From IMG/VR virus record IMGVR_UViG_2582580966_000010: 14,048 nt of DNA. One strand, written 5' to 3'. Positions 1-14,048 of the stretch are shown piece by piece. The position numbers and the translations under genes were made by a program. The first letter of the stretch is position 1. Each line of letters starts with the position of its first letter. The notes below the pieces were generated by a model, which saw only the letters and a program-made list of their open reading frames with translations, was not told the origin of the DNA and searched no databases. Source of the DNA: a virus. Lineage: Duplodnaviria; Heunggongvirae; Uroviricota; Caudoviricetes.

Positions 1-145
1 GTTTATCACAACATGTGTGTACGCCATCAAACCACGAGAAATAATCAATTATGACGCAGGTATCGTATTAATTGATCTGCATCAAATTAACGTAAAAGCA
101 ACTTCAGATAATACAAATCAGCAACACTGAATATGGGAAAACATT

Positions 146-346
146 ATGTCATCAAAGAACAGAACCCGCAGAACAACAACCCGCAACATCCGATTTCCAA
201 ACCAGATGATTGAACAAATTAACATCGCTCTTGATCTGAAAGGTTCAGGAAACTTTTCAGCGTGGGTTATTGAAGCCTGCAGGAGAAGGCTGGCAACAGA
301 TGCAACGCATCTGCGCCCGGCCAGCATGAAAAATAACGAGAAATGA
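146..346 (+). CDS. Small ribbon-helix-helix-like DNA-binding protein (Arc/CopG-like; resembles DUF3950/YlcI-type prophage proteins)
   Basis: 66-aa ORF with ATG at 146. The pattern RNIRFPNQMIEQINIAL...GNFSAWVIEACRRRL fits a beta-strand followed by two helices, as in RHH repressors. It is the only convincing plus-strand gene at this end of the window. The SD is weak. Confidence 0.45.
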   Translation: MSSKNRTRRTTTRNIRFPNQMIEQINIALDLKGSGNFSAWVIEACRRRLATDATHLRPASMKNNEK

Positions 347-477
347 ACGTTCGGTTACAGGAGCAGGTACCCACTGTCCTCCAACAATATTTCATCTTCA
401 TATCCGACGGAACAAGACTTACCCTGCCGGGATGTACAGAATAACAACAGAGTGATAATTAATTTCTGATGAAATAA

Positions 478-804
478 TCAGGGTGCAGAAGGACTAAAGA
501 TAAACGTTTTCTTCACGCCTTTACACGGCCTGTCCTTCTCAAATCGCCATTTTGCCATCGCCTTTACAACCTGCTCATCAAACAAATGGTGCGGCTCTGA
601 ACGGATAAACTCAATTCGGGTGACAGTACCATCAGCACCAATATCAAACTTCACATCAACCCGTCCCTTTATATAATTTGCCGCTGCATAGGCCGGATAT
701 TGTGGTAATGCCTTAACCAACTGTCGGGGCATATCTGTTTTATGTTGCGTACAGCCCATAACCAGAGAAGACAACAAAATAATTAACGGAAGGTTTCTTT
801 TCAT
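478..804 (-). CDS. Lipoprotein with TonB C-terminal-like domain
   Basis: Signal peptide with lipobox-like LVMGC (MKRNLPLIILLSSLVMGC). The C-terminal region PQYPAYAAANYIKGRVDVKFDIGADGTVTRIEFIRSEPHHLFDEQVVKAMAKWRFEK matches the TonB_C/TolA-C fold signature. ATG at 804 has GGGA placed 6 nt upstream; the ORF track begins at an upstream GTG (819). Confidence 0.55.
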   Translation of the reverse strand: MKRNLPLIILLSSLVMGCTQHKTDMPRQLVKALPQYPAYAAANYIKGRVDVKFDIGADGTVTRIEFIRSEPHHLFDEQVVKAMAKWRFEKDRPCKGVKKTFIFSPSAP

Positions 805-1148
805 TTTCATTCCCGGCACAGATAAGAATAAGTCTTATTCTAACAATGCCACCCTGTCGGTCATCAATCCTCTGCTTAATGGCAACGACAATTATCCGAC
901 TTAAATCACAAATCAGACACATGACATAACAGAGCTTGCGAGGTAACACATCGTCCGGTTTCTTCCACCATCGCACCGGACCAGCGACCATGAGGGGACA
1001 ACGCCGCGCTCCGTTAACACGGTAAACCCCGGTGTGTATCGTTTTTGATTATCCCCGCACACTCGCGCAGAGGAGTCTCCCGGTCGGGCTGCGGTCTCTG
1101 TTAATGCGGGGATACGGCGACAATACCGCGCATGGTTAATAAGGTCGC

Positions 1149-1373
1149 TCAACACACTGGCTGTAATGCAGCGGATACCATGCGGCATTTAGCGGCATTC
1201 ATCGTACACTCAACGGTTAGCTCTTCATTCGTGGCATTCACCTGAAAGGTCCGGGAGTGTAATTGCGTACATTTACCACTGAACGAACCTTCAACAAGAA
1301 CACGACCACGCTGCAAAATACGGAACGGAATTGTTCCCTGAAAAGGCTTTACGGTTACCAGTAATTTCTTCAT
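1149..1373 (-). CDS. Hypothetical small protein (74 aa) downstream of Rz
   Basis: ATG at 1373 preceded by a GGAGA SD. The N-terminal two-thirds (MKKLLVTVKPFQGTIPFRILQRGRVLVEGSFSG...) looks protein-like, but the C-terminus is Cys/Arg-rich and may be degenerate. Confidence 0.35.
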   Translation of the reverse strand: MKKLLVTVKPFQGTIPFRILQRGRVLVEGSFSGKCTQLHSRTFQVNATNEELTVECTMNAAKCRMVSAALQPVC

Positions 1374-1396
1374 GCATTCTCCGGATAACAAAAATA

Positions 1397-1864
1397 CTAG
1401 TTAATACACTGAGTGCGGATATAGTCCTGCGCCCCTTCCAGTTGCTTCTGCATTGTCATCAACCGCTCTCTGAGGGTGAAATAATCCCGTTCAGCGGTGT
1501 CTGCCAGTCGGGGGCCGGTTGCATTATCCACGCGGGCGGTGCCGGTGGCTTCACGCACGGAACCTGGACAGGTGGCGTTGATACGCAGGCTGCGGCGACC
1601 AGCGGCAACGTCAGCGCGCAGAGTTTCATTTTCAGCTCTCGCATCGGCTAACTCCTTTGTGTATTTTTCATCCAGCGCAGCAACATCACGCTGACGCTGC
1701 TGCATGTCAGTAATGGTTGTGTTTGCCAGCTCCAGCTCTCTGGCTTTTTTATCGCGCTGCGCTTTGTAGGTGATGGCGTTATCGCGGTAATGATTCAGCC
1801 CCAGACTAAGCACACCACAGGCTACCAGCAGGACAATAATCACCACACACAGAACACGGTTCAT
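1397..1864 (-). CDS. Rz: Rz i-spanin (inner-membrane spanin subunit)
   Basis: Strong similarity to lambda Rz as remembered: N-terminal TM followed by [15 protein letters not shown]...[15 protein letters not shown]...AAGRR...[23 protein letters not shown]. Start chosen at MNRVL (ATG 1864) to match lambda Rz length; the ORF track extends to an upstream GTG. Confidence 0.9.
1459..1644 (-). CDS. Rz1: Rz1 o-spanin (outer-membrane lipoprotein spanin), embedded in Rz in the +1 frame
   Basis: 61-aa ORF wholly inside Rz in another frame. It has a lipobox (LVAAAC) and the proline-rich motif [30 protein letters not shown], nearly identical to lambda Rz1. Confidence 0.85.
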
Positions 1865-1963
1865 ATCACCACCAACGGATTGCCCAGACCAGAACAGCAA
1901 TGGCCACAATACGAATGGCAAATGCCATTGCCCGAATAAGTTCAGCACTCATCTTTTTAAAGT

Positions 1964-2146
1964 TCACGATTTCAGCGCAATGACCAGTTTTGCCAGCCCA
2001 TACAGTATCGGAGACACAGCGATACCAACCGCCACCCACTTAATAGCAAAAGCCAGCGCTCTGCTGATGTCATCAGTTACTGGCGCTTTCAGTTCAAGGC
2101 CGTTTTTCATAGTCAACCTCAACAGAATTCGTTTATACTTTTCCAT
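1964..2146 (-). CDS. Hypothetical 60-aa tail-anchored membrane protein between endolysin and Rz
   Basis: ATG at 2146 with a strong SD (AAGGGAG). Charged N-terminal half and a hydrophobic C-terminal helix (ALAFAIKWVAVGIAVSPILYGLAKLVIAL). An upstream in-frame ATG at 2179 is also possible. Confidence 0.45.
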   Translation of the reverse strand: MEKYKRILLRLTMKNGLELKAPVTDDISRALAFAIKWVAVGIAVSPILYGLAKLVIALKS

Positions 2147-2179
2147 GTTCTCCCTTGCCTTATCCAAGGTCAGAAACAC

Positions 2180-2212
2180 AAAACCCCGCTTGCAGCCAAC
2201 AAACGGGGTTTT
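2180..2212. terminator. Bidirectional intrinsic terminator-like hairpin between endolysin and the 60-aa ORF
   Basis: AAAACCCCG-cttgcagccaacaaa-CGGGGTTTTT: a GC stem flanked by an A-run on one side and a T-run on the other, so it gives a U-tract on both strands. Confidence 0.45.
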
Positions 2213-2302
2213 TACTTTTATTCACTTAGTTTTTGTTAGTTCGCAGGATTTCGTGTTATCCGTCCGTGTGAGCAAACCGCATTTTTCAGCAAAATATTCT
2301 GC

Positions 2303-2836
2303 TTATCTGTCAATTCCCCAGCACGCCAGCGCACTCTCCTGGTCGCGACGGGATACCTGACCGTAACAGTTGTTTGAGCGAATACGGCAGTCTCTGCCAC
2401 CGTCCTTAATCCACCAGCGAATCGCTTCGCATGCTCCCCTGCGATCACCTGCATTAATTCGTCTGTAAAACGTCGACGGGAAACACTTACCGGGACCAAT
2501 GTTGTACGGACAGAATGACGCGATCCCCGCTTTCTGGGGTTCGGTCAGCGGCACTCTGATGTTTTTCTCCACCCACGCCAGCGCTTTATCACGCTCAATG
2601 GCGTTAACCTGGTCGCATTTTTCCTTCGACAACTTCATGCCCGGAACGACAGGTTTGCCATCCACCATGATGGCACCACGGCAGATGGTCCAGATACCCG
2701 CACCATCACGGTATGCCGTGGTGTGGTTGCCTTCTTTTTCATCCAGAAACTGGTCGAGAATTTCAGGCGCAGACGCACCAGCGGCAATCAGCGCCAGAAC
2801 GGCAGCCGACAGGCCGTATCTGATTTTTGCGTTCAT
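2303..2836 (-). CDS. R: SAR (signal-anchor-release) endolysin, T4-lysozyme-like muramidase (GH24)
   Basis: Gly/Ala-rich weakly hydrophobic N-terminal SAR segment (YGLSAAVLALIAAGASAPEIL), followed by the catalytic E-x8-D-x5-T spacing (EGNHTTAYRDGAGIWT) seen in phage 21 R-type lysozymes. It pairs with the upstream pinholin. Confidence 0.9.
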   Translation of the reverse strand: MNAKIRYGLSAAVLALIAAGASAPEILDQFLDEKEGNHTTAYRDGAGIWTICRGAIMVDGKPVVPGMKLSKEKCDQVNAIERDKALAWVEKNIRVPLTEPQKAGIASFCPYNIGPGKCFPSTFYRRINAGDRRGACEAIRWWIKDGGRDCRIRSNNCYGQVSRRDQESALACWGIDR

Positions 2837-2961
2837 GGATATTTATCAGGATTTATCGGTTCCGAATCCCTGGATATGTTAAGTCTTCAGCCCGCCAGTG
2901 GTGGGCACTGGCGTAAACTCAACAATGCGAGATGGCTGCCTCGCAAAGATAAGGAACAGAT

Positions 2962-3237
2962 ATGAGTGAAGAAAATAGCAAAGAGAATACAGCACTTTTT
3001 GACAGAATTTTTACTCTTGAGTTACAGGTCGGTTTTCTTCTCCCAAAGATAATCAAAGCAATGGATGCACTAAGTAAAAATAACGCTGTGTCAGATTACC
3101 TGATCGCCGAAATGGAACATCTAATTAAAGAAATACCAAAGACAGTTGCTCGTGATGATAAAAGATTCCTCAAGGCTGCTGAAGATGCTCTTTCAACAGT
3201 GAAGCGCAGCTTAGATGCGCCGCGCGATCAAGAATAG
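2962..3237 (+). CDS. Hypothetical 91-aa helical protein, antisense to the late operon (moron-like)
   Basis: ATG at 2962 with SD AAGGA at 6-nt spacing. AT-rich. The opposite strand over 2837-3169 has no ORF. It is followed by its own plus-strand intrinsic terminator. Its 3' end overlaps the 3' end of the converging 176-aa gene by 68 bp. Confidence 0.5.
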   Translation: MSEENSKENTALFDRIFTLELQVGFLLPKIIKAMDALSKNNAVSDYLIAEMEHLIKEIPKTVARDDKRFLKAAEDALSTVKRSLDAPRDQE

Positions 3238-3700
3238 TTTCTTTCATTTCATCTGCTGCAAGCACCTCATTTTTTGTTGGGGTGCTTTTTTTCAATTCAG
3301 CGATATAGCACTCCAGTTTTTCAATGCGTGATTCAATATCATCGTTTTCTGACCGCAATGCCGTCGGTGGCGTCTTCAGAGAACCAGTAATTATTCCCGG
3401 TAGTTTTCCTCTGTAGGTTATCAACACATCCTGCGCCTCTAAAATTATGGGGCGCTTTTCCGGCAACGGACCATCCCCTTCACATAACCCGGCAGCAACA
3501 TCCATGAAAAACTGCTTCGCCTGCTTTTTCGCCTCAGCTTCGTAAAACTCCAGCGTGGCATCTTCAGTACGGTCAAGACTAATCGCCACATCTGGCAACA
3601 ACAGTGACGGATACCCACCAATTTCCAGTGCCACAGTAACAGTAATCTTATTCGGGTAATTATTTATCCCTTTAACAACCAGTTCGTATTTTTTCTTCAT
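3170..3700 (-). CDS. Hypothetical 176-aa protein translationally coupled downstream of the holin
   Basis: ATG at 3700 lies 4 nt after the holin stop, with a GGAGAG SD inside the holin 3' end. Predicted C-terminal coiled coil (ENDDIESRIEKLECYIAELKK). No motif I recognise. Confidence 0.6.
   Translation of the reverse strand: MKKKYELVVKGINNYPNKITVTVALEIGGYPSLLLPDVAISLDRTEDATLEFYEAEAKKQAKQFFMDVAAGLCEGDGPLPEKRPIILEAQDVLITYRGKLPGIITGSLKTPPTALRSENDDIESRIEKLECYIAELKKSTPTKNEVLAADEMKETILDRAAHLSCASLLKEHLQQP
3261..3292 (+). terminator. Intrinsic terminator for the plus-strand 91-aa gene
   Basis: AGCACC...GGTGC stem followed by TTTTTTT on the plus strand only; the minus-strand RNA has no U-tract after the hairpin. 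The loop is long (14 nt), so confidence is moderate. Confidence 0.4.
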
Positions 3701-3704
3701 CGCT

Positions 3705-3920
3705 TTACTCTCCCCGCGCCGCCTTACGACGGTCCTCTCTGATTTTGAAATACAGGTTAGTCAGATATGTCAGCAGCCCAAACAGCAGACTTCCCAGTAC
3801 GCCTATTGCCGCCCACTGAGACGGGGAAACCCTGTCCAGCAGCTGCAGGAACCAGTAGCCCGTTCCCACCGCTGACGTGGTGTATGACACACCTGTTGTG
3901 ATTTTTTCCATCTGGTACAT
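3705..3920 (-). CDS. S: Class II holin (phage 21 S-like pinholin)
   Basis: 71-aa ORF. The sequence [51 protein letters not shown] is near-identical to S21/EssD-type holins as remembered. Possible dual-start motif M1-Y-Q-M4. Strong SD (GGGAG). Confidence 0.9.
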
Positions 3921-3995
3921 ACCCCGTCTCCCGCAATCCGGAAGCTCACAACAACAAGAGGGGCATCAGCTCACACCGACAGCCCCTGCGCATGG

Positions 3996-4265
3996 TTACA
4001 TCATCATTTCGCCGTCAGGCTGAGGCTCACTGCTACCATCAGGCTGAGACCCGACGCCATCTGAAACAGCACTGTCATCCGCAATGCCTTCCGGCTCCGG
4101 AACAGTCGGTGCGCCCAGCAGTTCATCCAGAATGGCATCCACTTCTGCATCAAGACGCGCCTCAAGGTTCTGCCGAAGTTGCTGTTTCAGTGCGCTTCTG
4201 ACTTCTTCAGAGCGCAGGACTTCCTTCACTGCTTCAGCAGTGACCAGCGATTTTATTTCTGACAT
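3996..4265 (-). CDS. Hypothetical small acidic protein (about 89 aa)
   Basis: ORF with a helical N-terminal region (MSEIKSLVTAEAVKEVLRSEEVRSALKQQLRQNLEARLDAEVDAILDELLG) and an acidic, low-complexity C-terminus. Start chosen at the internal ATG (4265) because the upstream extension is low-complexity. SD is weak. Confidence 0.4.
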   Translation of the reverse strand: MSEIKSLVTAEAVKEVLRSEEVRSALKQQLRQNLEARLDAEVDAILDELLGAPTVPEPEGIADDSAVSDGVGSQPDGSSEPQPDGEMMM

Positions 4266-4302
4266 GGTATTTTCTCGTTGAAAGGTGTTGTTAAGAAAGT
4301 TG

Positions 4303-4485
4303 CTACGGAATGAGAGGCTCTTCGGGTTTTGTTCCGGCTGACTGACTGGCACTGATTTTCTCAGCGGCCCTTTTGTCAATCTGCCTGCGCCAGAAATCTC
4401 TCACGACTCTGTACCCACCAGAAAGAAGATACAGCACACAAACTGCTGTACAGAAATACAACATAATCAGCTGTAAAAATGTCAT
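4303..4485 (-). CDS. Hypothetical 60-aa membrane protein
   Basis: ATG at 4485 with a GGAGA SD 7 nt upstream. N-terminal TM helix (FLQLIMLYFCTAVCVLYLLSGG) followed by a basic segment. Confidence 0.45.
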   Translation of the reverse strand: MTFLQLIMLYFCTAVCVLYLLSGGYRVVRDFWRRQIDKRAAEKISASQSAGTKPEEPLIP

Positions 4486-4633
4486 TATTCATCTCCATTA
4501 TTGACATGGTCAATGCCTGCCAGTAAAAAACTCCTGCATTTTTTGCTCAGCATATTTTTGCTAAGGATGTAGCGACTTCTGCCGCCGGTTCTGGCTCCTT
4601 GTTTTCCCTGCCACGGCGGTCTTTTTTTCCTGC

Positions 4634-6577
4634 TTACGGGTTATTCACTTCCACTGCGATACTGTCAATCAGTACCGGGTAAGTCGCATTTTTAGTGATA
4701 TCGGTCACGCGCAACTTGTCTGCCGTAAACGTGCCGACCGGAGACTGCGACAGCATGAATGGTGTCCCGTCCTTACCATCAATGACCGGCGTCACCTCAA
4801 TACTGTTGTTACCGGCAAAACGGAAGCCCAGCGTATGCCATTCGTTATTAAATGCGCCGAATGACCCCAGCTTCGTGTTCTGCGCCGTGTTTCCTTTGTG
4901 ATACATCACGTTAAGGTCTGTGGCATCGCTCTGTACGTAAAACGATGCCAGCAGGTTATGACCGGCATTACCTTCCAGTGTGACGCCCTGAGGAAGCGAA
5001 GAAACCGGCCAGTACAGCGCCAGTGCGTACTGATTAGCCGTAAGCGCGCCATCGAGTTTAAAACGACAACTGACAAGACCACCTTTACCCAGCAGGTCCG
5101 CACCATTACCAGCATCATGCTCAAGGTACCAGGGGGCTCTTCCTGTTTCCTTGGTCAGTTTCATTGCCTTACCCCCGCTGGCTCCGGCATCATCCACGAT
5201 TTGAGCCTTGCCACCTCCGGCAGCCCAACCCTGTGGTGTCAACCGTCCTTCAGACTCAGATGCCCGGTAAGCAAATAGCGTACTCATCGTCGTGGTGTCT
5301 GCGGGTGGCGTGGACGGTTTTGATGGTGTATCAGGTGACGGCTTCTCATCCGGTGGTGTCACGGTCTGCCCGCGCATCAATTCAGCCGTGCGCCCTGCAT
5401 GGAGCATAATAGCTGAGGCCAGACGGTCTGAAATGACGCCCCTGCGTGCCCATGAGCTGAAATGGCTGTCACGCTGTGTCGAAACAAAACTGCCCTGGGT
5501 TCGGGATGCTGCACCGTAATACCCGACAGCCACAATATCCGGGTCTTCCGCCGGAGCATTCGTTGGCGTGCTCTGTCCATTCTCATCCGTCAGGAACGGT
5601 ACAAAGAAAATATTCTGTGCTTCCCTGCCCTTGTAACCGCCATATACCGCCTCATATTTATCGGCGTTAAGATTCTTCCAGTAATACGTGGTGTCACCAC
5701 AAATCCACGGCACCGAGCCAGCACTTCCGCCAACACACTGTGCAGAATATGCAGCCATATCAGCCCTGAACTGCTGCACCATAGTGGTAAACAGGCCGCT
5801 GTGCTGCTGACTGCCGTCCGCAAGATCATTTTCCCCCTGCATCCATACCACGGCCAGAAGCCTGTTTTTCGGGTTCTTCGACAGCGCCGCTTTTGTACGG
5901 AAGAGAAAATCCTGATACAGCGGTTTACCCACTCCCCAGCGGGCTGAATTTGCCGATGCGCCAGACGTTTCGCTGAACGTGCCGTCATTACCCACGGTTA
6001 AACCAGCCCCGCCACGGCAACAGGGCACCAGAAGAATCCCGGCATTCTGCGGGATATAAGGCAGAAGTTTTTTGGCAATATGCAGCCCCTGACCGACAGT
6101 CCCGTACTGGCCCTTACTCAGGTCTGCATGAGGATGGTTAAGTGCGCTCATGTCCTGAACATCATGCAGACAGTGGTCTGCCGGAATAACGTCATTGTAT
6201 GCACAGGTATCACCACCCGGCGTCACAGTGCTGCGACGGGCCAGCTGCTTAATACGGGAGTCAGGGCGATCATAGGTCTCCGGCAGAGGAAGCCCCTCAC
6301 CATAGGCCATACCGTTCGACTGCCCGGCCAGGGGAATAACGTAGTAATACTCCGGTTCAGTGGTAGCCACTCCCGGAGAGCCACCAGCCCCTGTGTCGGG
6401 CACAACCACAGGCGTGGTCACATCACCCTCTGCGGCAATGGCCTGCATCAGTGTATAAGGCGTGATAGCCACAGGACTGCCAAACGGCTGCCAGCCTTCC
6501 TTCAGTTTTTGTGTCAGTCGCTCCGCAAGGTCTGACGGCGACGCCGCCCTGACCACGTCATAGTGTTTAAATGCCAT
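4634..6577 (-). CDS. nanS-p: Prophage-encoded sialate O-acetylesterase (NanS-p-like; DUF1737 N-domain plus SASA/SGNH esterase plus C-terminal lectin-like domain)
   Basis: 647-aa ORF. Start chosen at MAFKHYDVV (ATG 6577) with a strong SD (GGAGGA); the ORF track begins 10 codons upstream. It carries the SASA-family catalytic serine motif GQSN (YYYVIPLAGQSNGMAYGE) and the conserved block VVWMQGENDL. Its position between the tRNA/cargo site and the holin matches the large esterase ORF downstream of stx in Stx phages. Confidence 0.8.
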   Translation of the reverse strand: MAFKHYDVVRAASPSDLAERLTQKLKEGWQPFGSPVAITPYTLMQAIAAEGDVTTPVVVPDTGAGGSPGVATTEPEYYYVIPLAGQSNGMAYGEGLPLPETYDRPDSRIKQLARRSTVTPGGDTCAYNDVIPADHCLHDVQDMSALNHPHADLSKGQYGTVGQGLHIAKKLLPYIPQNAGILLVPCCRGGAGLTVGNDGTFSETSGASANSARWGVGKPLYQDFLFRTKAALSKNPKNRLLAVVWMQGENDLADGSQQHSGLFTTMVQQFRADMAAYSAQCVGGSAGSVPWICGDTTYYWKNLNADKYEAVYGGYKGREAQNIFFVPFLTDENGQSTPTNAPAEDPDIVAVGYYGAASRTQGSFVSTQRDSHFSSWARRGVISDRLASAIMLHAGRTAELMRGQTVTPPDEKPSPDTPSKPSTPPADTTTMSTLFAYRASESEGRLTPQGWAAGGGKAQIVDDAGASGGKAMKLTKETGRAPWYLEHDAGNGADLLGKGGLVSCRFKLDGALTANQYALALYWPVSSLPQGVTLEGNAGHNLLASFYVQSDATDLNVMYHKGNTAQNTKLGSFGAFNNEWHTLGFRFAGNNSIEVTPVIDGKDGTPFMLSQSPVGTFTADKLRVTDITKNATYPVLIDSIAVEVNNP

Positions 6578-6660
6578 TATTCCTCCCCTTTCCGGGATTT
6601 TCCTCAACAGTTGCGGGCCACGGTCCGGCTACACGGAGAATCAAAAGAGGAGAACCGCAG

Positions 6661-6696
6661 CCCGCAAAACGAAAAAGGCCGCGCAGTTGCGCAGCC
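6661..6696 (-). terminator. Intrinsic terminator (minus strand) upstream of nanS-p
   Basis: Minus-strand RNA forms GGCUGCGC-aacu-GCGCGGCC (8 bp including one G-U pair), followed by UUUUUCGUUUU. Confidence 0.45.
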
Positions 6697-6760
6697 TTAT
6701 CACAGATGGTAAAAATCAGAACACGATAATAAAAATACCTGATGTATATTCATGCGCCCC

Positions 6761-6788
6761 GCCCGCCACTCACTGCGGGCTTTTTTTT
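6761..6788 (+). terminator. Intrinsic terminator (plus-strand orientation)
   Basis: GCCCGC-cactcact-GCGGGC followed by T8 on the plus strand. Confidence 0.5.
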
Positions 6789-6796
6789 GCCCATAG

Positions 6797-6823
6797 AAAA
6801 GCCCCTCCGGAGAGGGGCTTTTT
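6797..6823. terminator. Bidirectional intrinsic terminator downstream of the TerB operon
   Basis: AAAA-GCCCCTC-cgga-GAGGGGC-TTTTT: a perfect 7-bp GC stem with an A-run and a T-run on either side. Confidence 0.55.
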
Positions 6824-7063
6824 ACAGTGGTAGTGTAGACAATTTTGCATGGTGCCGGGTGCCTCCCGGTGAGTTCAGTATCAGCACCTGAACCCGCACA
6901 GAAAGGATAAGGGTCGGTGACAAAACACCAGTTGCTGATTGCCCCTCCGCACAGGGGGATTCACCATGCCAGTTTCTTTTAACAAACTCCCCGCAAACCA
7001 GACAACAGTCAACCGCCTGAATTGTGAGGTATTTAAAAATTTCAACGGGTAACTGATACCCTG

Positions 7064-7225
7064 CTAATCGCCTGATGCTTTCTTTTTCAGCAACGGGAAA
7101 GCAACAACCACCACACCCGCCACCAGCACACCGTCAGCCAGCACTGACATTATCCGGCTGCTGAAGTCCACCATCACCACCATCACTACCAGAAACAGCA
7201 GGAGCGCAACCACAGCCAGACGCAT
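7064..7225 (-). CDS. Hypothetical 53-aa hydrophobic microprotein (predicted two TM segments), coupled to the TerB-like gene
   Basis: Translated by hand from the reverse complement: MRLAVVALLLFLVVMVVMVDFSSRIMSVLADGVLVAGVVVVAFPLLKKKASGD. The ATG at 7225 lies 8 nt after the TerB stop. It falls below the 60-aa cutoff of the ORF track. Confidence 0.4.
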   Translation of the reverse strand: MRLAVVALLLFLVVMVVMVDFSSRIMSVLADGVLVAGVVVVAFPLLKKKASGD

Positions 7226-7233
7226 TTTTACCG

Positions 7234-7665
7234 TCACAGATGATTCTCCAGACGAAGGCCCAGAACACCGGCAATCTCTTCCAGCACCTTGCGCTCTTCC
7301 GGCTCTATTTCGCCGTCTGCTTCGGCAATGGCCACCGCCACATCCAGCACGTCTTCCGCTTCACGCGTATCGTGTTTCACATCCTCGATCTCACGTAACG
7401 CCGCTCGACGACCAATTTTAAAGTTCGTATCCAGCTGACCGATAATGGTTGCGCTAATCGCATTAATTTCTGACGTAAACGCGGACAACGCAGGCTGGTT
7501 ACGCAAGACCTGCTCGATCTTCGCTTTCTCTGAAGCCTCACATTCACCATCTGCATAGGCCACCAGATAGGCAGCATTAATAACCGCCTGTGCCAGATCA
7601 CGTTTCTCAAACTTTTTAATTTCCACTGCCGCTCGGCGGGCTTTTTTACCAAAAATACCAAACAT
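7234..7665 (-). CDS. TerB-family (tellurite-resistance TerB-like) protein
   Basis: 143-aa ORF from MFGIFGKK (ATG 7665, SD AAAGGA). Two TerB-type repeats (AAYLVAYADGECEASEKAKIEQVL and DVAVAIAEADGEIEPEERKVLEEIAGVLGL) match the helical motif of TerB proteins. Confidence 0.7.
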   Translation of the reverse strand: MFGIFGKKARRAAVEIKKFEKRDLAQAVINAAYLVAYADGECEASEKAKIEQVLRNQPALSAFTSEINAISATIIGQLDTNFKIGRRAALREIEDVKHDTREAEDVLDVAVAIAEADGEIEPEERKVLEEIAGVLGLRLENHL

Positions 7666-7835
7666 CGTGACGTTCCTTTGGGTGGGTGAGCCAACGCCCG
7701 GGAGCGATCTGCCCACAGAGAAAGTCACACTGACCACTCCGTAAGCTCACCCCCGAAAGGCTCTGTGGTTGATATGCGCCGGGCGTGGCGCGGATACAAA
7801 AAAGGCCCGCAAAAGCGAGCCGGGAAAAATAAGTC

Positions 7836-7912
7836 TGGCGCGTTGTACTGGATTCGAACCAGTGACCGATTGCTTAGAAGGCAATTGCTCTGTCCGGCTG
7901 AGCTAACAACGC
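7836..7912 (-). tRNA. tRNA-Arg (anticodon UCU)
   Basis: Hand-folded cloverleaf: acceptor GCGTTGT/ACAACGC, D-arm GCTC...GAGC, anticodon stem ATTGC/GCAAT with loop CTTCTAA, T-arm CTGG-TTCGAAT-CCAG, then discriminator and an encoded CCA. Confidence 0.8.
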
Positions 7913-7928
7913 AGGATACAGATAATGA

Positions 7929-8002
7929 ACCGCCTTCGGGGATCCGAACTCCGCGCAACCAGCTTCGAAGGCTGGCGCTCTTTCCTGATGAGCTAATGGC
8001 GG
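7929..8002 (-). tRNA. tRNA-like gene, Arg (anticodon UCG), imperfect and without encoded CCA; possibly degenerate
   Basis: Cloverleaf with anticodon stem CCAGC/GCTGG and loop CTTCGAA. The acceptor stem has one A-A mismatch and the T-stem one A-C mismatch. The 3' end is followed by TCA rather than CCA. Confidence 0.5.
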
Positions 8003-8009
8003 TATGTGA

Positions 8010-8085
8010 TGGTGGCCCTTGCTGGATTTGAACCAGCGACCTGGCGATTATGAGTCGCTCGCTCTCACCACTGAGCTAAAGGGCC
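8010..8085 (-). tRNA. tRNA-Ile2 (anticodon CAU, ileX/ileZ-like; a Met assignment cannot be excluded from sequence alone)
   Basis: Sequence GGCCCTTTAGCTCAGTGGTGAGAGCGAGCGACTCATAATCGCCAGGTCGCTGGTTCAAATCCAGCAAGGGCCACCA. The anticodon stem-loop matches E. coli ileX-type tRNA as remembered. Perfect acceptor stem and an encoded CCA. Confidence 0.8.
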
Positions 8086-8113
8086 GAGCCAAAAAATAAT
8101 AATCAGATGAAAA

Positions 8114-8827
8114 TCAATAATCAAGCCCTTGCCTGGATACATATCTGTCTGGCGGGAAGCCATAATAGCGGTGAAATACAGAAATAAAGTAGGACCTGCT
8201 TGAATAACCGCATTTTTCTGCTATAGCCTGTCCATATCCATGCCGGGAACATAACATATTTACAGCAACACGCATCCGCTCTTCCAGCAACAAGCGACTG
8301 AACATGCCCCCTTCATTTTTCAGTTTTGTCTTTAACAAACTCTCACTCATATGCAACTGTAGAGCAATCGCACAAAGCGTCCAGCTTGCTGATATATCTG
8401 TCTGAATTATCGCCCTGACTTTGGCACTTATGCTGGATAAACATCCACTTAAAAACAATGACATCCGTTCATCTGTTTCAAACAGAGACAGGCAGGCCAT
8501 CATAAGAAACATATCCGTGGCCTCTCCGGAAAATCCCTGGCTGGTAATTAAAGCCGCAGCCAACGCAGGATTGTTGGGTTCCAGCAACAGGTAAAGCGGA
8601 ATGTCAGTCAGACGAGTCCTCGTCAGCTTATGCTGACTTTCCAGATATTGACTTACGACGGATTCGCTTATATCGACAATTTTAACTTTGCCATAATGCA
8701 TAAGGAAAAGCTCCCTGATGCATTTGGTGGCCAGAACAACTGAGCCTGGCTTAAGTGACAACGTATCCTTTTCAAGAAAAATATTAATTGGGGAGCAAAC
8801 CATGATAACTGAACAGACAACAGCCAT
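8114..8827 (-). CDS. AraC-family transcriptional regulator (AppY-like, no sugar-binding domain)
   Basis: 237-aa, AT-rich ORF. The C-terminal dual HTH region (WTLCAIALQLHMSESLLKTKLKNEGGMFSRLLLEERMRVAVNMLCSRHGYGQAIAEKCGYSSRSYFISVFHRYYGFPP) is typical of the AraC family, and the N-terminus MAVVCSVIMVCS resembles AppY. Confidence 0.75.
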   Translation of the reverse strand: MAVVCSVIMVCSPINIFLEKDTLSLKPGSVVLATKCIRELFLMHYGKVKIVDISESVVSQYLESQHKLTRTRLTDIPLYLLLEPNNPALAAALITSQGFSGEATDMFLMMACLSLFETDERMSLFLSGCLSSISAKVRAIIQTDISASWTLCAIALQLHMSESLLKTKLKNEGGMFSRLLLEERMRVAVNMLCSRHGYGQAIAEKCGYSSRSYFISVFHRYYGFPPDRYVSRQGLDY

Positions 8828-8960
8828 TATAATTTTACTTTCATTAGCAATTGGTTAGCTCAATTATAGCCCCAAAAGGTAAATTATCATCAACACATAA
8901 GCAAAGGACTGACAGGTGTCGCCCCCCACCAGCCGCCCATTCACCACAAATAAAAAGCCT

Positions 8961-9158
8961 TCAGGACTGAAGGCGTCTGTAACAACCGCACTGATAGTCT
9001 GCCAGACCCACCATAACAAGCTGGGTCAGTATTAACTGGCAGCGTTCGCGTGAAAGGTAAGTATTCTGCGCAATCTCCCCGACGGTCGCCGGTTCGGTGA
9101 CGCTTAATTCATTAAACACCACTCTGGCGGTTTCTGTCATATCCTGCTGTTTTAGCAT
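8961..9158 (-). CDS. Hypothetical 65-aa protein, possible winged-helix DNA-binding fold
   Basis: Start chosen at MLKQQDM (ATG 9158), which has an SD-like GGAAAAGGGA upstream. The segment ATVGEIAQNTYLSRERCQLILTQLVMVGLADY resembles a recognition helix plus wing. The upstream ORF-track extension is Cys-rich and unlikely. Confidence 0.35.
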   Translation of the reverse strand: MLKQQDMTETARVVFNELSVTEPATVGEIAQNTYLSRERCQLILTQLVMVGLADYQCGCYRRLQS

Positions 9159-9280
9159 GTCTTTTTCCCTTTTCCGGTTAACGTGACACACCAATAACTC
9201 TTGTCGAAAAAGCCAGCAAGCTGAAAGACAGGTATTCACCGCCACCAGCGCGTTTACTGTACTGACGCGATTTCAGTCAT

Positions 9281-9303
9281 AAAAAACCCGCCAGGCGGCG
9301 GGG
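9281..9303 (-). terminator. tR'-like intrinsic terminator downstream of Q
   Basis: Minus-strand RNA: CCCGCC-gccu-GGCGGG followed by UUUUUU. The plus-strand RNA has no U-tract. Lies about 80 nt downstream of the Q stop. Confidence 0.55.
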
Positions 9304-9344
9304 TGTAAAAAATCTTCTAACGTCAGGCATAAAACGCCCATCGT

Positions 9345-9380
9345 TAGAGCGAATTTACCACAGATTCGGGAAAAATCAAC
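9345..9380 (-). promoter_or_regulatory. Candidate late promoter pR' (sigma70, extended -10) immediately downstream of Q
   Basis: On the minus strand: -35 TTGATT (9379-9374), 16-nt spacer, TGg-TAAATT extended -10 (9357-9352). The predicted short transcript would end at the terminator at 9281-9303, matching the lambdoid pR'-qut-tR' arrangement. Confidence 0.4.
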
Positions 9381-9384
9381 AACA

Positions 9385-10206
9385 CTATCGCGTTACCCTC
9401 TTTAACTGCCGCTCCGCCCATGCCTCTTCAATGTCAAACCGAACCACCAACGTATCGTAAAAGCGTTTCACTGATTTTTTCCACGTATCAAGCGTGATAG
9501 CACTCGTCACTTTGCATATGGCATTAAATGCCTCCGTTGATGGTAGTCTTTCACAGCCACGACCACCACAACGCTGGCAGTCTCTGATAACAGGCATACC
9601 ACGTTTTACCGACTCTTCACGATGAATGGCGACACCACGCCCACGGCAATCCTTACAGGCGGTGGAAACCTCACCCTTTCCGCCACACTCCGGACAGGCA
9701 ACTTTTACCACCTCCCTGACTTTTTTCCATTCTTCCCAGTAAGACGGATACACACCTTTCGTACACTTTGCCCATACCGGCGGCTTACCATCCGGATACT
9801 GGACCTTGTTTGTAAAAACTACGCTTTCAATAAATTTTTCCCCATAGCAACAAGGGCACTGCTTTTTACTCGCTGCGCTGCGGGCATAATCCTCAAAAGC
9901 GTACGAAGCCATAATGCGCATCACTACCGGTTTTATTTCTGCCGGGAGTTTTCTTAACGCCGCCACGCGATCACACCGACTGAGTGCATATTCTGTCAGC
10001 AATTCTGTTGCCCGCTCTCTGTCATTCATACTAATGCCCATTTTCCCAAGGAACGCAGAAAACCCCATCCCAGCCCGATTCTGTGTCATGCCCTGCGCGG
10101 CCATCACATCAGTGATACTCAGCGCATCTTTCGACGTTGAGGCCGATGCATCAGTCAGGCCGGGGGATTTTGGGGAGTAGTATTTCGGTAAATCTTCCAG
10201 TTTCAT
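9385..10206 (-). CDS. Q: Late-gene antiterminator Q (QuuQ-like)
   Basis: 273-aa ORF. The N-terminus MKLEDLPKYYSPKSPGLTD...SITDVMAAQGM matches Qin QuuQ-type Q as remembered. Several CxxC pairs suggest a zinc-binding domain. It lies between rusA and pR'/tR'. Confidence 0.8.
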   Translation of the reverse strand: MKLEDLPKYYSPKSPGLTDASASTSKDALSITDVMAAQGMTQNRAGMGFSAFLGKMGISMNDRERATELLTEYALSRCDRVAALRKLPAEIKPVVMRIMASYAFEDYARSAASKKQCPCCYGEKFIESVVFTNKVQYPDGKPPVWAKCTKGVYPSYWEEWKKVREVVKVACPECGGKGEVSTACKDCRGRGVAIHREESVKRGMPVIRDCQRCGGRGCERLPSTEAFNAICKVTSAITLDTWKKSVKRFYDTLVVRFDIEEAWAERQLKRVTR

Positions 10207-10577
10207 TTTTTGACCTGCCCTGCAAGCATTATGGGGTAAATCTTCACCCCCAGACGTCCACCAGATACTGGCTGAGCACGAACGATATTGATTTCATCAA
10301 ACTGCTCATCGTCCATTAGCAACCCCGCATGCGTCAGCGCATCCAGCGGCGCTTTCAGAATATTGTCCAGGTCACGGCGGCGCTTATCCGGTGGCGCGGC
10401 AATAATCTTTATCGCCAGCCTTCCGGACAGGCTTAATTTCAGCCGCTGCTGGCGAACAATAAGCGCCACAGCCCGGCGATAACGCTCACCGGCTTTTGAT
10501 ACAAAATATGTGCTGCCACGACGTCGCCAGTAGGTGTTCACCGTCGGCGGGTAAGGCAAAACAAACTCTATACGCAT
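10203..10577 (-). CDS. rusA: Holliday-junction resolvase RusA
   Basis: 124-aa ORF with the RusA motif block PDKRRRDLDNILKAPLDALTHAGLLMDDEQ. Overlaps the Q start by 4 nt. Confidence 0.85.
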   Translation of the reverse strand: MRIEFVLPYPPTVNTYWRRRGSTYFVSKAGERYRRAVALIVRQQRLKLSLSGRLAIKIIAAPPDKRRRDLDNILKAPLDALTHAGLLMDDEQFDEINIVRAQPVSGGRLGVKIYPIMLAGQVKK

Positions 10578-10589
10578 CAGTAACCTCTT

Positions 10590-11639
10590 TTACCCGAGCA
10601 CGCCGGTTGCAAAGGCGTGATCAAGAAAACGAAAAATTAAATCAACCTGAGAGCCATGCTTTTCTTCGAACGCCAGCGGATCCGCATGAAGCTCGTTGTG
10701 ATGCTCCCGACACAGCGGTAGCGTGAAAATATCGTGAGATTTTGTCCCCATTCCGCCCTGACCATGACCAATCAGGTGATGGGGATCGTCGGCTGGCTTA
10801 CCACAACACGCACACGGCTGTGTCTTCACCCAGCGCGTGTATTTCTCGTTAACCCAGCGGCGACGTTTAGGTCGTTTCATGAAGGATTCCGGAGACTCCG
10901 GATCAACGGCAATGCTGACCACCGTCTTTTCCTGTGGTGGATTTTGTTGCTGGTGGACGTGAAGTGGCAGCGCAATATTTTTTGTGCGCTGCTTCAGTAT
11001 GCTGATGGCTGTCTGTTCTCCCGGTACGATGTCACTCTCACGGTATACGGAGCGGATTTTTTCCGCTGGTAATCCCAGCGAACGACGCGCTACTGCCTCA
11101 GGTAGTGCATCCACCACCTGATTGCAGGCCGCCCACCAGGATAATTCAGCCAGCGATAATTCACGCTCCTGTGTGCCATTCATTGCGTGACGAATGACGT
11201 CAATCATCCATGCTGACAGGTTTTGGTGAGCAAGTTGCTCAAGTGATTCGGAGGTCTGGTCACGCAACTGGTTGTCGCAGTGCCAGCACAACACCATTGC
11301 GCCGGTACCATAACGGTGAATGACGGTTTCACTGTGGTGATAATCGCCGTGTGGCCACTGGCAGGATTTAACATGGCGCAGTAACCAGTCAGACAATGCG
11401 CCAGCGCCACCAGCAGCACGAATCACTCGTTCGTCGCTGAAAAATGGCAGTAATGATTTATCCTCCGCCAGCGGCTGGCGAACGGCAGGAACGACCCCGG
11501 ACGACAGATTACGCATGCTTTTCGGTTCCGGCTCCACCAGTACCCGGGTATTGTGGAATACCGGCATGGATTCACGGCCCGGCTTAACGATCACCAGCCC
11601 GAGTTCCGGTACCAGAACAGGTCGAAGTAATACCCGCAC
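10590..11639 (-). CDS. ydfU: DUF968-family protein with C-terminal HNH-like zinc motif (YdfU-like; NinG-region protein)
   Basis: 349-aa ORF with an apparent GTG start; an internal ATG is also possible. Near-identical in pattern to Qin YdfU as remembered. C-terminal CACCGKPADDPHHLIGHGQGGMGTKSHDIFTLPLCREHHNELH. Confidence 0.75.
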   Translation of the reverse strand: MRVLLRPVLVPELGLVIVKPGRESMPVFHNTRVLVEPEPKSMRNLSSGVVPAVRQPLAEDKSLLPFFSDERVIRAAGGAGALSDWLLRHVKSCQWPHGDYHHSETVIHRYGTGAMVLCWHCDNQLRDQTSESLEQLAHQNLSAWMIDVIRHAMNGTQERELSLAELSWWAACNQVVDALPEAVARRSLGLPAEKIRSVYRESDIVPGEQTAISILKQRTKNIALPLHVHQQQNPPQEKTVVSIAVDPESPESFMKRPKRRRWVNEKYTRWVKTQPCACCGKPADDPHHLIGHGQGGMGTKSHDIFTLPLCREHHNELHADPLAFEEKHGSQVDLIFRFLDHAFATGVLG

Positions 11640-11640
11640 G

Positions 11641-11913
11641 TTACCTCCAGATGCGTTGCTGGAATGTGCGGGACGGACGCGGTGGGCGTTCAGAGTAAGG
11701 AAGCCTGACGGAGATTATCCAGTGACGATAATCGAGGCTGAGAGCTTTCTTAACCTCGAACCCGCGCCTGCGGTAAGAATGAATCAGCCATTCGGCCTGT
11801 TCTTCAGTACATGGTGGGTGTTGGTACCAGTCGGTTTTAAATGCGTGTGAACGCCGCTCATGCCGGATGGCAAGGTCGGTATCAGAATTGTGAAATTTGG
11901 TTTTGTGCGCCAT
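11641..11913 (-). CDS. Hypothetical 90-aa protein, in the position of Qin rem
   Basis: ATG at 11913. Its stop lies 1 nt before the DUF968 start. Assigned by position only (between hok and the ydfU-like gene). Confidence 0.45.
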   Translation of the reverse strand: MAHKTKFHNSDTDLAIRHERRSHAFKTDWYQHPPCTEEQAEWLIHSYRRRGFEVKKALSLDYRHWIISVRLPYSERPPRPSRTFQQRIWR

Positions 11914-11985
11914 CTGTTTTCTCTGCTGGCGCAGCAGGTGTCAGGTGTTCAGGCTGACGTGCGAATTGTAAACCAGAATGCCAGG

Positions 11986-12012
11986 AAAAAACAAAACCCG
12001 CCGAAGCGGGTT
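11986..12012 (-). terminator. Intrinsic terminator of the hok transcript
   Basis: Minus-strand RNA: AACCCGC-uucg-GCGGGUU followed by UUGUUUUUU, about 70 nt downstream of the hok stop. Confidence 0.6.
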
Positions 12013-12080
12013 AAGTGCGGGTGCGTTGAGGATGCCTGACACATCAGAGGTGGCGAGGGATTTCTCCCCCGCCAGGTCTC

Positions 12081-12236
12081 TTACTCCTCAGGTTCGTAAG
12101 CTGTGAAGACAGCGACCTCCGTCTGGCCGGTTCGGATTCGTACCTCGCAGAGGTCTTTCCTCGTTACCAGTGCCGTCACAATGACGGTTAAACAGATGAC
12201 GATCAGGGCGATTAGCATCGCCTTTTGCTGCTTCAT
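12081..12236 (-). CDS. hok: Hok-family type I toxin (identical in sequence to HokD/RelF as remembered)
   Basis: Hand translation gives MKQQKAMLIALIVICLTVIVTALVTRKDLCEVRIRTGQTEVAVFTAYEPEE (51 aa): one TM helix plus a periplasmic tail with conserved Cys. Confidence 0.9.
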   Translation of the reverse strand: MKQQKAMLIALIVICLTVIVTALVTRKDLCEVRIRTGQTEVAVFTAYEPEE

Positions 12237-12293
12237 AGCCTGCTTCTCCTTGCCTTTCGGCACGTAAGAGGCTAACCTACGTGTGTAGAGCAT
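12081..12293 (-). CDS. mok: mok-like overlapping reading frame (same frame as hok, upstream start)
   Basis: In-frame upstream extension MLYTRRLASYVPKGKEKQA running into hok, as in hok/mok/sok loci where mok translation is needed for hok translation. Confidence 0.55.
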   Translation of the reverse strand: MLYTRRLASYVPKGKEKQAMKQQKAMLIALIVICLTVIVTALVTRKDLCEVRIRTGQTEVAVFTAYEPEE

Positions 12294-12447
12294 AGATATG
12301 GCCTCAGATTAATGTTAAGCGTCTTGCCGGACGCGTAATGTTAACTGGGGCTTTTCTCTATCTGCCTTTTGGTGTTCATGCCTGAGACAGATAGCCTCAA
12401 GCACCCGCTGCAATTCTACTTAACTCTCCTTTTCCCGCAAACCGTTT

Positions 12448-12531
12448 TTATCCCCAGCGGCAAATCGAATACACCACCAGCGCCACCGCCATCGCAATTC
12501 CTACCGTTGTTAATGCTTCAGGCCAGGTCAT
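12448..12531 (-). CDS. Candidate 27-aa hydrophobic peptide (MTWPEALTTVGIAMAVALVVYSICRWG)
   Basis: ATG at 12531 preceded by GGAGGA at 9-nt spacing. Single predicted TM helix. Below the ORF-track cutoff; found by hand translation. Confidence 0.3.
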   Translation of the reverse strand: MTWPEALTTVGIAMAVALVVYSICRWG

Positions 12532-12626
12532 CGTAAAATATCCTCCACGCTTATCAGTCCGTTCCGCTCCAGATAACTCATCGCCTTATCCGGTAATTTG
12601 CAGTCTGGCTTCGCTTTCCTCAGTTG

Positions 12627-12872
12627 CTAGGTTAACTGCTTTACCAGCATGGTTAACTCATCGACCAGACGCTGATATCCCACTGGTTTGTATTCATGCA
12701 ATTTACCGGCTGGCTCTGCTGCCAGCGATACCAGTGCGATTTCCAGAACAGCAATATCCATCTTATATGTGCGGATGATGTCATGGTCGATTGTGCCCGG
12801 TATGCACAGTCTCTGTGCTTCAATAGTCTCCTCTGCGTGAGCTATTAACTGCTCTCTGGTAAAAGTCGTCAT
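12627..12872 (-). CDS. Hypothetical 81-aa protein, paralog of the upstream 55-aa gene
   Basis: ATG overlaps the stop of the upstream gene (ATGA). SD GAAGGGG inside the upstream gene. Shares the N-terminus MTTxTxE and the motif IALxSLxAEP with the 55-aa protein. Confidence 0.5.
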
Positions 12873-13036
12873 GCCGTAGCCCCTTCTTGATATTTTTCAA
12901 ACCAGAACACAACCGGCTCTGCTTCCAGCGATGCCAGCGCAATCCGTGCCAGTTCCATTTGTTCACCACGGGTAAGCCCGTTTTCAAGCGGGTTTTTAAT
13001 GAACAATTCAATACGTTCTTTGGTAATAGTGGTCAT
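12869..13036 (-). CDS. Hypothetical 55-aa protein ([55 protein letters not shown])
   Basis: Hand translation. ATG at 13036 with a strong SD (AAGGAG). Stop overlaps the next start (ATGA). Below the ORF-track cutoff. Confidence 0.45.
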
Positions 13037-13046
13037 GTGTTACTCC

Positions 13047-13310
13047 TTAACCCGCAGTGCTTTCAACTGATGAGGGGAACAAAATCTTTTCATCAAACCC
13101 TGCATTCATATCATGAACAGCAACACACCAATCCATCGACGAACGATTATCAAGAGCCTCCATGATTTCATCCATGCGACGTAGGTCATACAGGTAAATG
13201 CTTTTATCGCCAATGGTGTAAAAGCCAATTTTTTTCGGTGATGGACAGCGATCAAGAACTTCCTGTAATTCGTTCAACCATGCCCGTTCTTTTTTTGTCA
13301 AAGTTGCCAT
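13047..13310 (-). CDS. Hypothetical 87-aa protein
   Basis: Start chosen at MATLTKKERAWLNELQ (ATG 13310) with SD AAGGA; the upstream ORF-track extension is low-complexity. The stop lies 10 nt before the next gene. Confidence 0.5.
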   Translation of the reverse strand: MATLTKKERAWLNELQEVLDRCPSPKKIGFYTIGDKSIYLYDLRRMDEIMEALDNRSSMDWCVAVHDMNAGFDEKILFPSSVESTAG

Positions 13311-13311
13311 A

Positions 13312-13530
13312 TCAGTTTTCCTTATACGGATTAATTTTATTGTGCAGTGTGTTGAACGACGCCCATACAACGTCGGTATACAATTCAGTAACTGGCTCAA
13401 TTATTTTCCCGATTGCCCAGACAAAAATTAGAGGGGATATCGGTATCATCAATACGATAAACAGAATGAGAAACAAAAATTCTGTCGCTCTACTTTTTTG
13501 CGGATATTCTTTTCTGAATAATGTAGTCAT
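13312..13530 (-). CDS. Hypothetical 72-aa membrane protein
   Basis: AT-rich. Hydrophobic core FLFLILFIVLMIPISPLIFVWAIG. Its stop is 1 nt from the next start. Confidence 0.5.
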   Translation of the reverse strand: MTTLFRKEYPQKSRATEFLFLILFIVLMIPISPLIFVWAIGKIIEPVTELYTDVVWASFNTLHNKINPYKEN

Positions 13531-13562
13531 TTCTTACCGCCCTTTCGGGCGGCCTCCCGACA

Positions 13563-13775
13563 TTAATCGTTGTGGTAACTCATGGCTTCATTTGCAGCAT
13601 CAACCGGATCAACCTCCCACCAGCAATAATTTGGTGCGTTTCCTTCAGGTGTCCACGGTTCTAATTCATTTTTTGCCACATTCTCGTCGCCAGTAATTTT
13701 AAAAATCTGTTCAGAGAATTTTTTCACCCACTCGTTATATTTTTCAGTGTTAATAATTTTCTGTGTATTTGACAT
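13563..13775 (-). CDS. Hypothetical 70-aa acidic, Trp-rich protein; first gene after the IS1 end
   Basis: ATG at 13775 with a strong SD (GGAGG). AT-rich. No motif I recognise (…EPWTPEGNAPNYCWWEVDPVDAANEAM…). Confidence 0.5.
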   Translation of the reverse strand: MSNTQKIINTEKYNEWVKKFSEQIFKITGDENVAKNELEPWTPEGNAPNYCWWEVDPVDAANEAMSYHND

Positions 13776-13840
13776 AGATATACCTCCAGTTAAGGATTAA
13801 ATTTTATTTACAGTGCTGAACTTAATTATTCAGATTTGGA

Positions 13841-14048
13841 GGTAATGACTCCAACTTATTGATAGTGTTTTATGTTCAGATAATGCCCGATGACTTTGTC
13901 ATGCAGCTCCACCGATTTTGAGAACGACAGCGACTTCCGTCCCAGCCGTGCCAGGTGCTGCCTCAGATTCAGGTTATGCCGCTCAATTCGCTGCGTATAT
14001 CGCTTGCTGATTACGTGCAGCTTTCCCTTCAGGCGGGATTCATACAGC
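13841..14048 (-). mobile_element. IS1 insertion sequence, right-end portion (IRR at 13841-13863), continuing beyond the window
   Basis: The reverse complement of 13841-14048 matches the IS1 right end as remembered, ending ...CACTATCAATAAGTTGGAGTCATTACC, including the terminal inverted repeat GGTAATGACTCCAACTTATTGAT. Confidence 0.85.
13856..14048 (-). CDS. insB: IS1 transposase InsB, C-terminal part (5' end outside the window)
   Basis: The reading frame ends ...[21 protein letters not shown] with a stop at 13856-13858, matching the InsB C-terminus; the ORF runs off the window edge. Confidence 0.75.

Follow-up and report, generated by a model that had tools for sequence, protein, structure and literature searches.

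The window, by which is meant the whole stretch of DNA analysed (14,048 bp), ends on its right inside an insertion sequence, and the outer end of that element faces a row of small prophage genes on the minus strand. The features of the element and of the DNA adjoining it are as follows.

13841..14048, minus strand: terminal 208 bp of an IS1 element, recognised by identity to complete 768-bp copies; the contig end cuts the element
13841..13863, minus strand: right inverted repeat (IRR) of IS1, GGTAATGACTCCAACTTATTGAT on the plus strand, matching exactly the IRR of complete copies whose limits are set by IRL and IRR
13856..14047, minus strand: 3' end of insB, 63 codons and the stop, matched by Pfam PF03400 (DDE_Tnp_IS1) and called as a gene in the source contig
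13776..13840, minus strand: spacer remnant, 65 bp of a 105-bp AT-rich spacer, defined by alignment with IS1-free relatives
13832..13840, no strand assigned: AGATTTGGA, the 9 bp adjoining IS1, a candidate copy of the target-site duplication if the insertion was simple

IS1 is an element of 768 bp with insA and insB', a programmed -1 frameshift and inverted repeats of about 23 bp, and its target duplication, typically 9 bp, flanks it as a direct repeat. When the region 13000-14048 was read on the plus strand, the outer end of IS1 was found to begin at 13841 (GGTAATGACTCCAACTTATTGATAGTG...). The bases from there to 14048 are identical at 208 of 208 positions to the last 208 bases of the complete 768-bp IS1 in two related loci (L003 and L009), and at 207 of 208 to the transposase copy annotated as 'IS1-like element IS1A family' in E. 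coli E7476, an identity far above chance. A minus-strand frame from 14047 to 13859 (63 residues) matches Pfam DDE_Tnp_IS1 with E = 9e-32 over positions 69-131 of 131. Because this frame encodes the C-terminus of InsB, the end present in the window is the insB-distal end, which is the IRR; IS1 is transcribed on the minus strand and insB heads toward 13841. The initial annotation had placed the right inverted repeat of an IS1 with its end at 13841 and had set that end next to a small-gene operon at a distance of 65 bp. The exact IRR match over 13841-13863 and the identity over the whole 208 bp bear this out, and the gap, 13776-13840, is followed by the ATG of the first small gene at 13775 on the minus strand.

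Downstream of IS1, the cluster comprises the following features.

13563..13775, minus strand: first small gene, 70 aa, phrog_4659; annotated with identical protein sequence in many E. coli prophages
13312..13530, minus strand: DUF4014 gene
13047..13310, minus strand: ORF of 87 aa
12869..13036, minus strand: ORF of 55 aa
12627..12872, minus strand: ORF of 81 aa, apparently truncated, covering only the N-terminal third of phrog_660 (a 193-position profile)
12231..12406, minus strand: match to the sok RNA family (Rfam sok, 117 bits)
12081..12293, minus strand: hok/mok toxin gene (Pfam HOK_GEF)
12012..11995, minus strand: strong intrinsic terminator 3' of hok, AACCCGCTTCGGCGGGTT then TTGTTTTTTC

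From its profile match the 81-aa ORF looks like a truncated gene; at 12627-12872 the source's gene caller gives a 44-aa product in its place. The gap between the first small gene and DUF4014 holds a GC-rich perfect hairpin, CCGCCC-GAAA-GGGCGG (13537-13552, minus strand), which has no U tract and may be an element of RNA stability or processing rather than a terminator. At 11995-12406 on the minus strand the type I toxin-antitoxin module hok/mok/sok is complete and is followed by the terminator. Past hok, the minus strand continues with a 90-aa ORF, DUF968, RusA and a 273-aa Q-type antiterminator, and past Q with an AraC-type gene, three tRNAs, a SASA-family esterase and the lysis cassette. The order cI, cro, replication genes, DUF977, small ORFs, hok, DUF968, RusA, Q and lysis genes, for which the window supplies the section running from small ORFs through lysis genes and IS1-free relatives supply the contiguous upstream part, is that of a nin-like region. 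Judged by this synteny, the 'small-gene operon' is a nin-like stretch in the rightward early (PR) operon of a lambdoid prophage.

The region beyond Q holds several elements of its own. The tRNA cluster (Met-CAT, Arg-TCG and Arg-TCT, 7836-8085, minus strand) is situated downstream of Q as in Stx-type lambdoid phages, and no stx genes are present in the window. Between Q and the lysis cassette there is cargo (8114-8827, minus strand, and about 7064-7665), consisting of genes for an AraC-type regulator of 237 aa (HTH_18), a TerB-domain protein of 143 aa and a DUF3927 protein of 57 aa. A full-length match to the STnc100 sRNA family (145.6 bits; 6789-6998, minus strand) lies just upstream of the gene for the 647-aa DUF1737/SASA esterase.

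The insertion site and the end of the contig

The site into which IS1 went was defined by megablast with 13000-14048 as query against 5426 complete E. coli genomes. In 399 of them the match spans 80% or more of the query, and the best matches run from 13000 to exactly 13840 with identity of up to 99.8%; in none of the 5426 does the match extend beyond 13840. With a slash marking the insertion point, the IS1-free sequence reads ...CAGATTTGGA / TTATGCTTTC..., and in the relative NZ_AP022105 it reads ...CAGATTTGGA / TTATGCTTTCTCTTCACG..., with the stop codon of DUF977 41 bp further on. Beyond DUF977, this relative has a replication-type gene, ydaT, cro and a LexA-family repressor, and in other relatives the order is integrase, exonuclease, dicB, repressor, cro, ydaT, replication genes, DUF977 and the small genes. 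A comparison with IS1-free homologs had been proposed in the initial annotation, and its outcome is a match up to 13840 followed by DUF977, replication genes, cro and cI. By gene order, IS1 is thus located in the spacer between the replication module and the nin-like stretch of the rightward early (PR) operon. The spacer, 105 bp from the DUF977 gene to the first small gene, has 31% G+C against 50% for the window, and its remnant (28% G+C) contains a strong Shine-Dalgarno sequence, GGAGG, at 13787-13783.

The same spacer is also a mosaic joint (window 13776-13840; L019 1638-1707; L020 1636-1702). A gene of 118 aa precedes the small gene in other prophage variants and terminates about 50 bp before it, and partial BLAST matches stop 3-6 bp from the IS1 insertion point.

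IS1 has a regional preference for AT-rich DNA, and a second insertion into this spacer was encountered. Look-up of the 70-aa protein returned three loci (L003, L004 and L009) whose spacer also holds an IS1 in this orientation, at a point 22 bp nearer the gene. This IS1-in-spacer structure is found in CP022457, which is Shigella sonnei 2015C-3566 (PMC6456863), and is shared by CP104419 and CP146292. The S. sonnei-type copies occupy 9190-9957 in both L003 and L009 and 8770-9957 in L004, where the copy measures 1188 bp, with nt ~108-533 of IS1 in tandem duplicate, a duplication that may be real or an assembly artefact. The S. sonnei IS1 is flanked by a 9-bp duplication (CAGCACTGT / CGGCACTGT, an 8/9 match), and the 3' end of DUF977 is kept on its far side. 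At its junction the best -10 at 16-19 nt matches only 2-4 of 6 positions and none has T at position 6; this junction, too, is absent from the complete E. coli genomes. The prophage remnant around it is rearranged: 463 bp upstream of IS1, an IS3-family element cuts the early region, and the downstream genes are inverted. On this layout, the truncation of the early region in S. sonnei is the work of a different IS element and not of IS1.

The two insertions are alike in the 105-bp spacer they occupy, in the direction of the IRR toward the small gene and in sequence, being identical over the compared region. They differ in that the S. sonnei copy has both ends visible, shows its duplication, has a poor -10 and is surrounded by rearrangements due to other IS elements. 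Two independent hits of IS1 in one AT-rich spacer are what a target preference predicts, and since one of the two has no usable -10, a preference for AT-rich targets fits better than selection for a promoter. A shared orientation of two insertions is expected by chance in 50% of cases.

It had also been proposed that IS1 marks the place where the replication and immunity region was disrupted and that the early region of the prophage is likely truncated. Nothing in the window supports this claim. Look-up of the Q protein identified the window, 1-14048, as the entire draft contig JMGU01000263.1 (GCA_000687025.1; 14048 bp), with its right end 208 bp into IS1. Repeats are where short-read assemblies break, and the window stops inside IS1 because the assembly broke there. 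With the window end recognised as an assembly boundary, no apparent reason is left to assume a truncated early region, and the replication and immunity genes of this prophage may well be on another contig. The lesson for method is that a window ending inside a repeat at a contig boundary does not amount to a truncated prophage. The left end of the window is ordinary prophage DNA, in a YlcI/YnfO-family gene region that is matched end to end in three E. coli genomes.

A related proposal is that IS1 caused a deletion or rearrangement in which the replication and immunity region disappeared or changed place; unrelated DNA would then lie at the other end of the element, with no 9-bp duplication. 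IS1 does produce adjacent deletions and inversions, IS elements have extensively rearranged the related prophage remnant in S. sonnei, and the source assembly is fragmented, into at least 263 contigs as judged from the contig number. Such an event is nevertheless regarded as rather unlikely, given that the window holds no indication of it (the abrupt end being the assembly break), that the S. sonnei IS1, of which both ends are visible, is a simple insertion with a 9-bp duplication and DUF977 beyond it, and that a lambdoid late-regulatory and lysis region extends colinearly through the 14 kb downstream of IS1. Under a simple insertion, the sequence beyond IRL would be AGATTTGGA followed by TTATGCTTTCTC..., leading into DUF977, and the predicted second junction would consist of the IRL tip (...GGCAGCATCACC, in plus orientation of the window), AGATTTGGA and TTATGC. 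The nine letters that the initial annotation had offered as target site are these same ones, AGATTTGGA at 13832-13840, directly beside IS1. The predicted second junction is absent from GTDB representative genomes and from JGI metagenome contigs. The exact Q protein of the window occurs in the source contig and in only five short metagenome/Logan contigs, with no closed genome of the lineage among them.

The observed junction between IS1 and its flank is likewise absent from the 5426 complete E. coli genomes and, as a 36-mer and a 25-mer, from GTDB representative genomes and JGI metagenome contigs. That it is known from one draft contig only would fit a chimeric junction made during assembly, with no IS1 at this position in the genome. 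This is exceedingly improbable: the break and the first base of a perfect IRR coincide, as in a real insertion, contigs that stop shortly inside a repeat are the normal signature of a real repeat copy, and IS1-free relatives share 99.8% identity with the unique sequence as far as 13840. The identity, position, orientation and context of IS1 are established by the analysis, as is the nature of the window's end as the end of a contig.

The candidate hybrid promoter

The initial annotation had further pointed to a TTGGAG inside the IS1 end and an AATAAT about 18 nt downstream in the flank as the possible -35 and -10 of an IS-derived promoter for the small genes. Both hexamers are present where it had seen them.

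13849..13854, minus strand: -35-like TTGGAG inside the IRR, facing outward, with 3/6 of TTGACA (the TTG)
13825..13830, minus strand: -10-like AATAAT in the prophage flank, with 5/6 of TATAAT, including A2 and T6

On the minus strand the spacing between the two is 18 nt, the TTGGAG ends 8 nt from the IS1 tip, and the TG of an extended -10 is missing. The candidate agrees with the consensus at 8 of 12 positions (3/6 and 5/6). A consensus scan of the window, with thresholds of at least 4/6 per hexamer and 9/12 overall, did not report TTGGAG-18-AATAAT, and sites of at least 8/12 occur at 3.1-3.7 per kb per strand across the window. The arrangement is therefore that of an outward -35 in the element with a -10 in the flank at 16-18 nt, and its quality does not rise above background.

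The alignment itself is less common. For a random insertion of IS1, a -10 of at least 5/6 at 16-18 nt from the -35 of the IRR is met at 0.9% of window positions; in an IS1-free relative the figure is 4.6% over the 195 bases preceding the gene, a stretch that includes the AT-rich spacer. In the IS1-free spacer a scan for native promoters and terminators found none, and no hexamer containing TTG lies 16-19 nt from the AATAAT. In other prophage variants the position of the AATAAT is taken by CTGAATAAATAA (AATAAA), at the stop-codon region of the upstream gene; on this comparison the AATAAT is not a conserved phage element, as it varies among the variants.

Three other readings of the junction were considered and rejected. 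IS1 does not appear to displace or reuse a conserved phage promoter, as the AATAAT region is the stop end of the upstream gene and the small gene is internal to the operon. A complete outward promoter within the last 208 bp of IS1 was sought, and only a poor match, ATGACA-19-GAACAT, was obtained. A junction hairpin with a TTGGAG/CTCCAA stem (plus strand) was dismissed as a terminator, as it has no proper T tract and is antisense to the genes. The fold of a 101-nt junction RNA is no better than that of shuffled sequences (z = -1.5).

Hybrid promoters made by IS1 were reportedly described by Prentki et al. in 1986 (J Mol Biol 191:383). The inverted repeat of IS1 carries an outward -35 (PMC8764528, PMC4287979), and hybrid promoters arising from IS1 insertion are documented, with both papers citing Prentki 1986. 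At afaA in E. coli ST131, an IS1 hybrid promoter goes with a transcript rise of about 7 log2-fold (PMC8764528), and at pgaA in the EAEC strain 55989 such a promoter was proposed (PMC4287979); acrEF and TEM-6 are further cases cited in PMC8764528 and PMC4287979. A complete outward promoter within an IS1 end has also been described (PMC4287979), and operon fusions just downstream of IS1 were found to be transcribed both from an IS1 promoter and from upstream genomic promoters (PMC12428005). IS1 insertions at osmB and ugd left the neighbouring gene without activation (PMC8764528). A literature search for the hexamer combined with IS1 returned no relevant report.

In the window, a functional sigma-70 hybrid promoter, composed of TTGGAG (13854-13849) and AATAAT (13830-13825), would drive the small-gene cluster constitutively. 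The geometry argues for it: the -35 holds the TTG, the -10 reaches 5/6 with A2 and T6 at a spacing of 18 nt, only some 1-5% of random insertion positions align a 5/6 -10 so well, and the TTG brought by IS1 surpasses every candidate of the IS1-free spacer at that distance. The predicted transcript would have a 42-nt leader with a free and strong Shine-Dalgarno sequence, and the promoters at afaA in ST131 (PMC8764528) and at pga in EAEC 55989 (PMC4287979) provide experimental precedent for IS1-made hybrid promoters. Weighing on the other side are a match of just 8/12, which the scan missed and which is equalled 3-4 times per kb, a spacer of 18 rather than 17 nt, the missing extended -10, the silent neighbours at osmB and ugd (PMC8764528), and the S. 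sonnei insertion, which arose independently and has no usable -10. These considerations leave an active promoter of this kind doubtful. InsA, reported to bind the ends of IS1 (Zerbib 1990), would in addition overlap the -35. That the promoter would remain active even while the repressor shuts PR, with a start at about 13817 and termination after hok, is held with equal reserve. A hybrid promoter is thus plausible here as a mechanism documented for IS1, and its consensus match in the window is weak.

Predicted effects of the insertion and comparison with known systems

The arrangement is probably best accounted for by a standard IS1 in the AT-rich spacer between DUF977 and the small genes, as a passenger event with weak effect. 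In such an event, IS1 would have transposed into the AT-rich spacer of the PR operon of a lambdoid prophage of the Rac/Qin/Stx-phage type, driven by its own preference for AT-rich targets, with insB and the IRR oriented into the small-gene cluster. Every effect of this IS1 on transcription is inferred. The main expected effect is that the downstream genes would be cut off from PR and would then depend on transcription through or from IS1. Low-level outward transcription could take two routes, read-out of the weak insAB' transcript and a possible weak hybrid promoter with a predicted start near 13817; transcripts from upstream DNA may also read out of the IRR, with IS1 co-oriented with the cluster. 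During induction, IS1 would be polar on PR transcription, to go by the classical polarity of IS1. Transcripts that are not antiterminated would then cover the five small genes and hok and stop at 12012-11995, and DUF968, RusA, Q and the lysis genes would stay silent past the hok terminator.

The junction also contains UUACCUCC (13838-13845, minus strand), formed partly by IS1 and partly by the flank, which is complementary to the GGAGG at 13783-13787. In the predicted fold of a read-out RNA (13898-13759; -19.4 kcal/mol), it pairs with the Shine-Dalgarno sequence of the first gene, and a transcript starting at the putative hybrid promoter would be without it. Since the junction fold is not better than shuffles (z = -1.5), this pairing is taken as a curiosity.

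As a counterpoint to a passenger insertion, the same orientation of two insertions in one 105-bp spacer (n=2) could reflect selection. In an extended form of this idea, the spacer would be a recurrent and orientation-biased target of IS1 in independent Escherichia/Shigella lineages, and selection would retain insertions that disarm the prophage and keep the small genes expressed, with the anti-Shine-Dalgarno sequence favouring transcripts from the hybrid promoter. If so, hok, RusA, Q and the lysis genes would be uncoupled from PR, the outward -35 of IS1 or read-out would keep the small genes expressed in the lysogen, and hybrid-promoter transcripts would be translated while read-through ones would not, by way of the anti-Shine-Dalgarno sequence at the junction. 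This extended form is very unlikely.

On the passenger reading, the IS1 insertion here is ordinary, strain-specific and already known in kind, and its importance hardly extends past annotation at strain level. An active hybrid promoter would add one more case of a mechanism described for IS1 since 1986, and its target would be prophage genes without known function.

Compared with IS1A-type elements of E. coli and Shigella, the copy in the window has its IRR and the C-terminus of InsB intact and shows no difference in the element itself; only the insertion site is strain-specific, and the remainder of the element lies beyond the contig. The IS1 hybrid promoters at afaA and pgaA resemble the junction in having a -35 at the tip of the inverted repeat, a -10 in the flank at promoter spacing and a co-oriented gene downstream. 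Cases of that type come with measured activation or selected phenotypes, whereas the window offers a sequence match of 8/12 with an 18-nt spacer, and the small genes of the window, unlike the IS1-activated genes of the literature, are without known function. In the same literature, many IS1 insertions leave their neighbours unactivated.

A parallel to the position of the insertion is provided by the polar IS insertions in the PR operon of lambda, r14 (IS1) and r32 (IS2), near cII/O. These are laboratory mutants with a demonstrated polarity that is relieved by N antitermination, whereas the polarity in the window is deduced. In both lambda and the window, the IS sits in the rightward early unit, upstream of PR-dependent genes.
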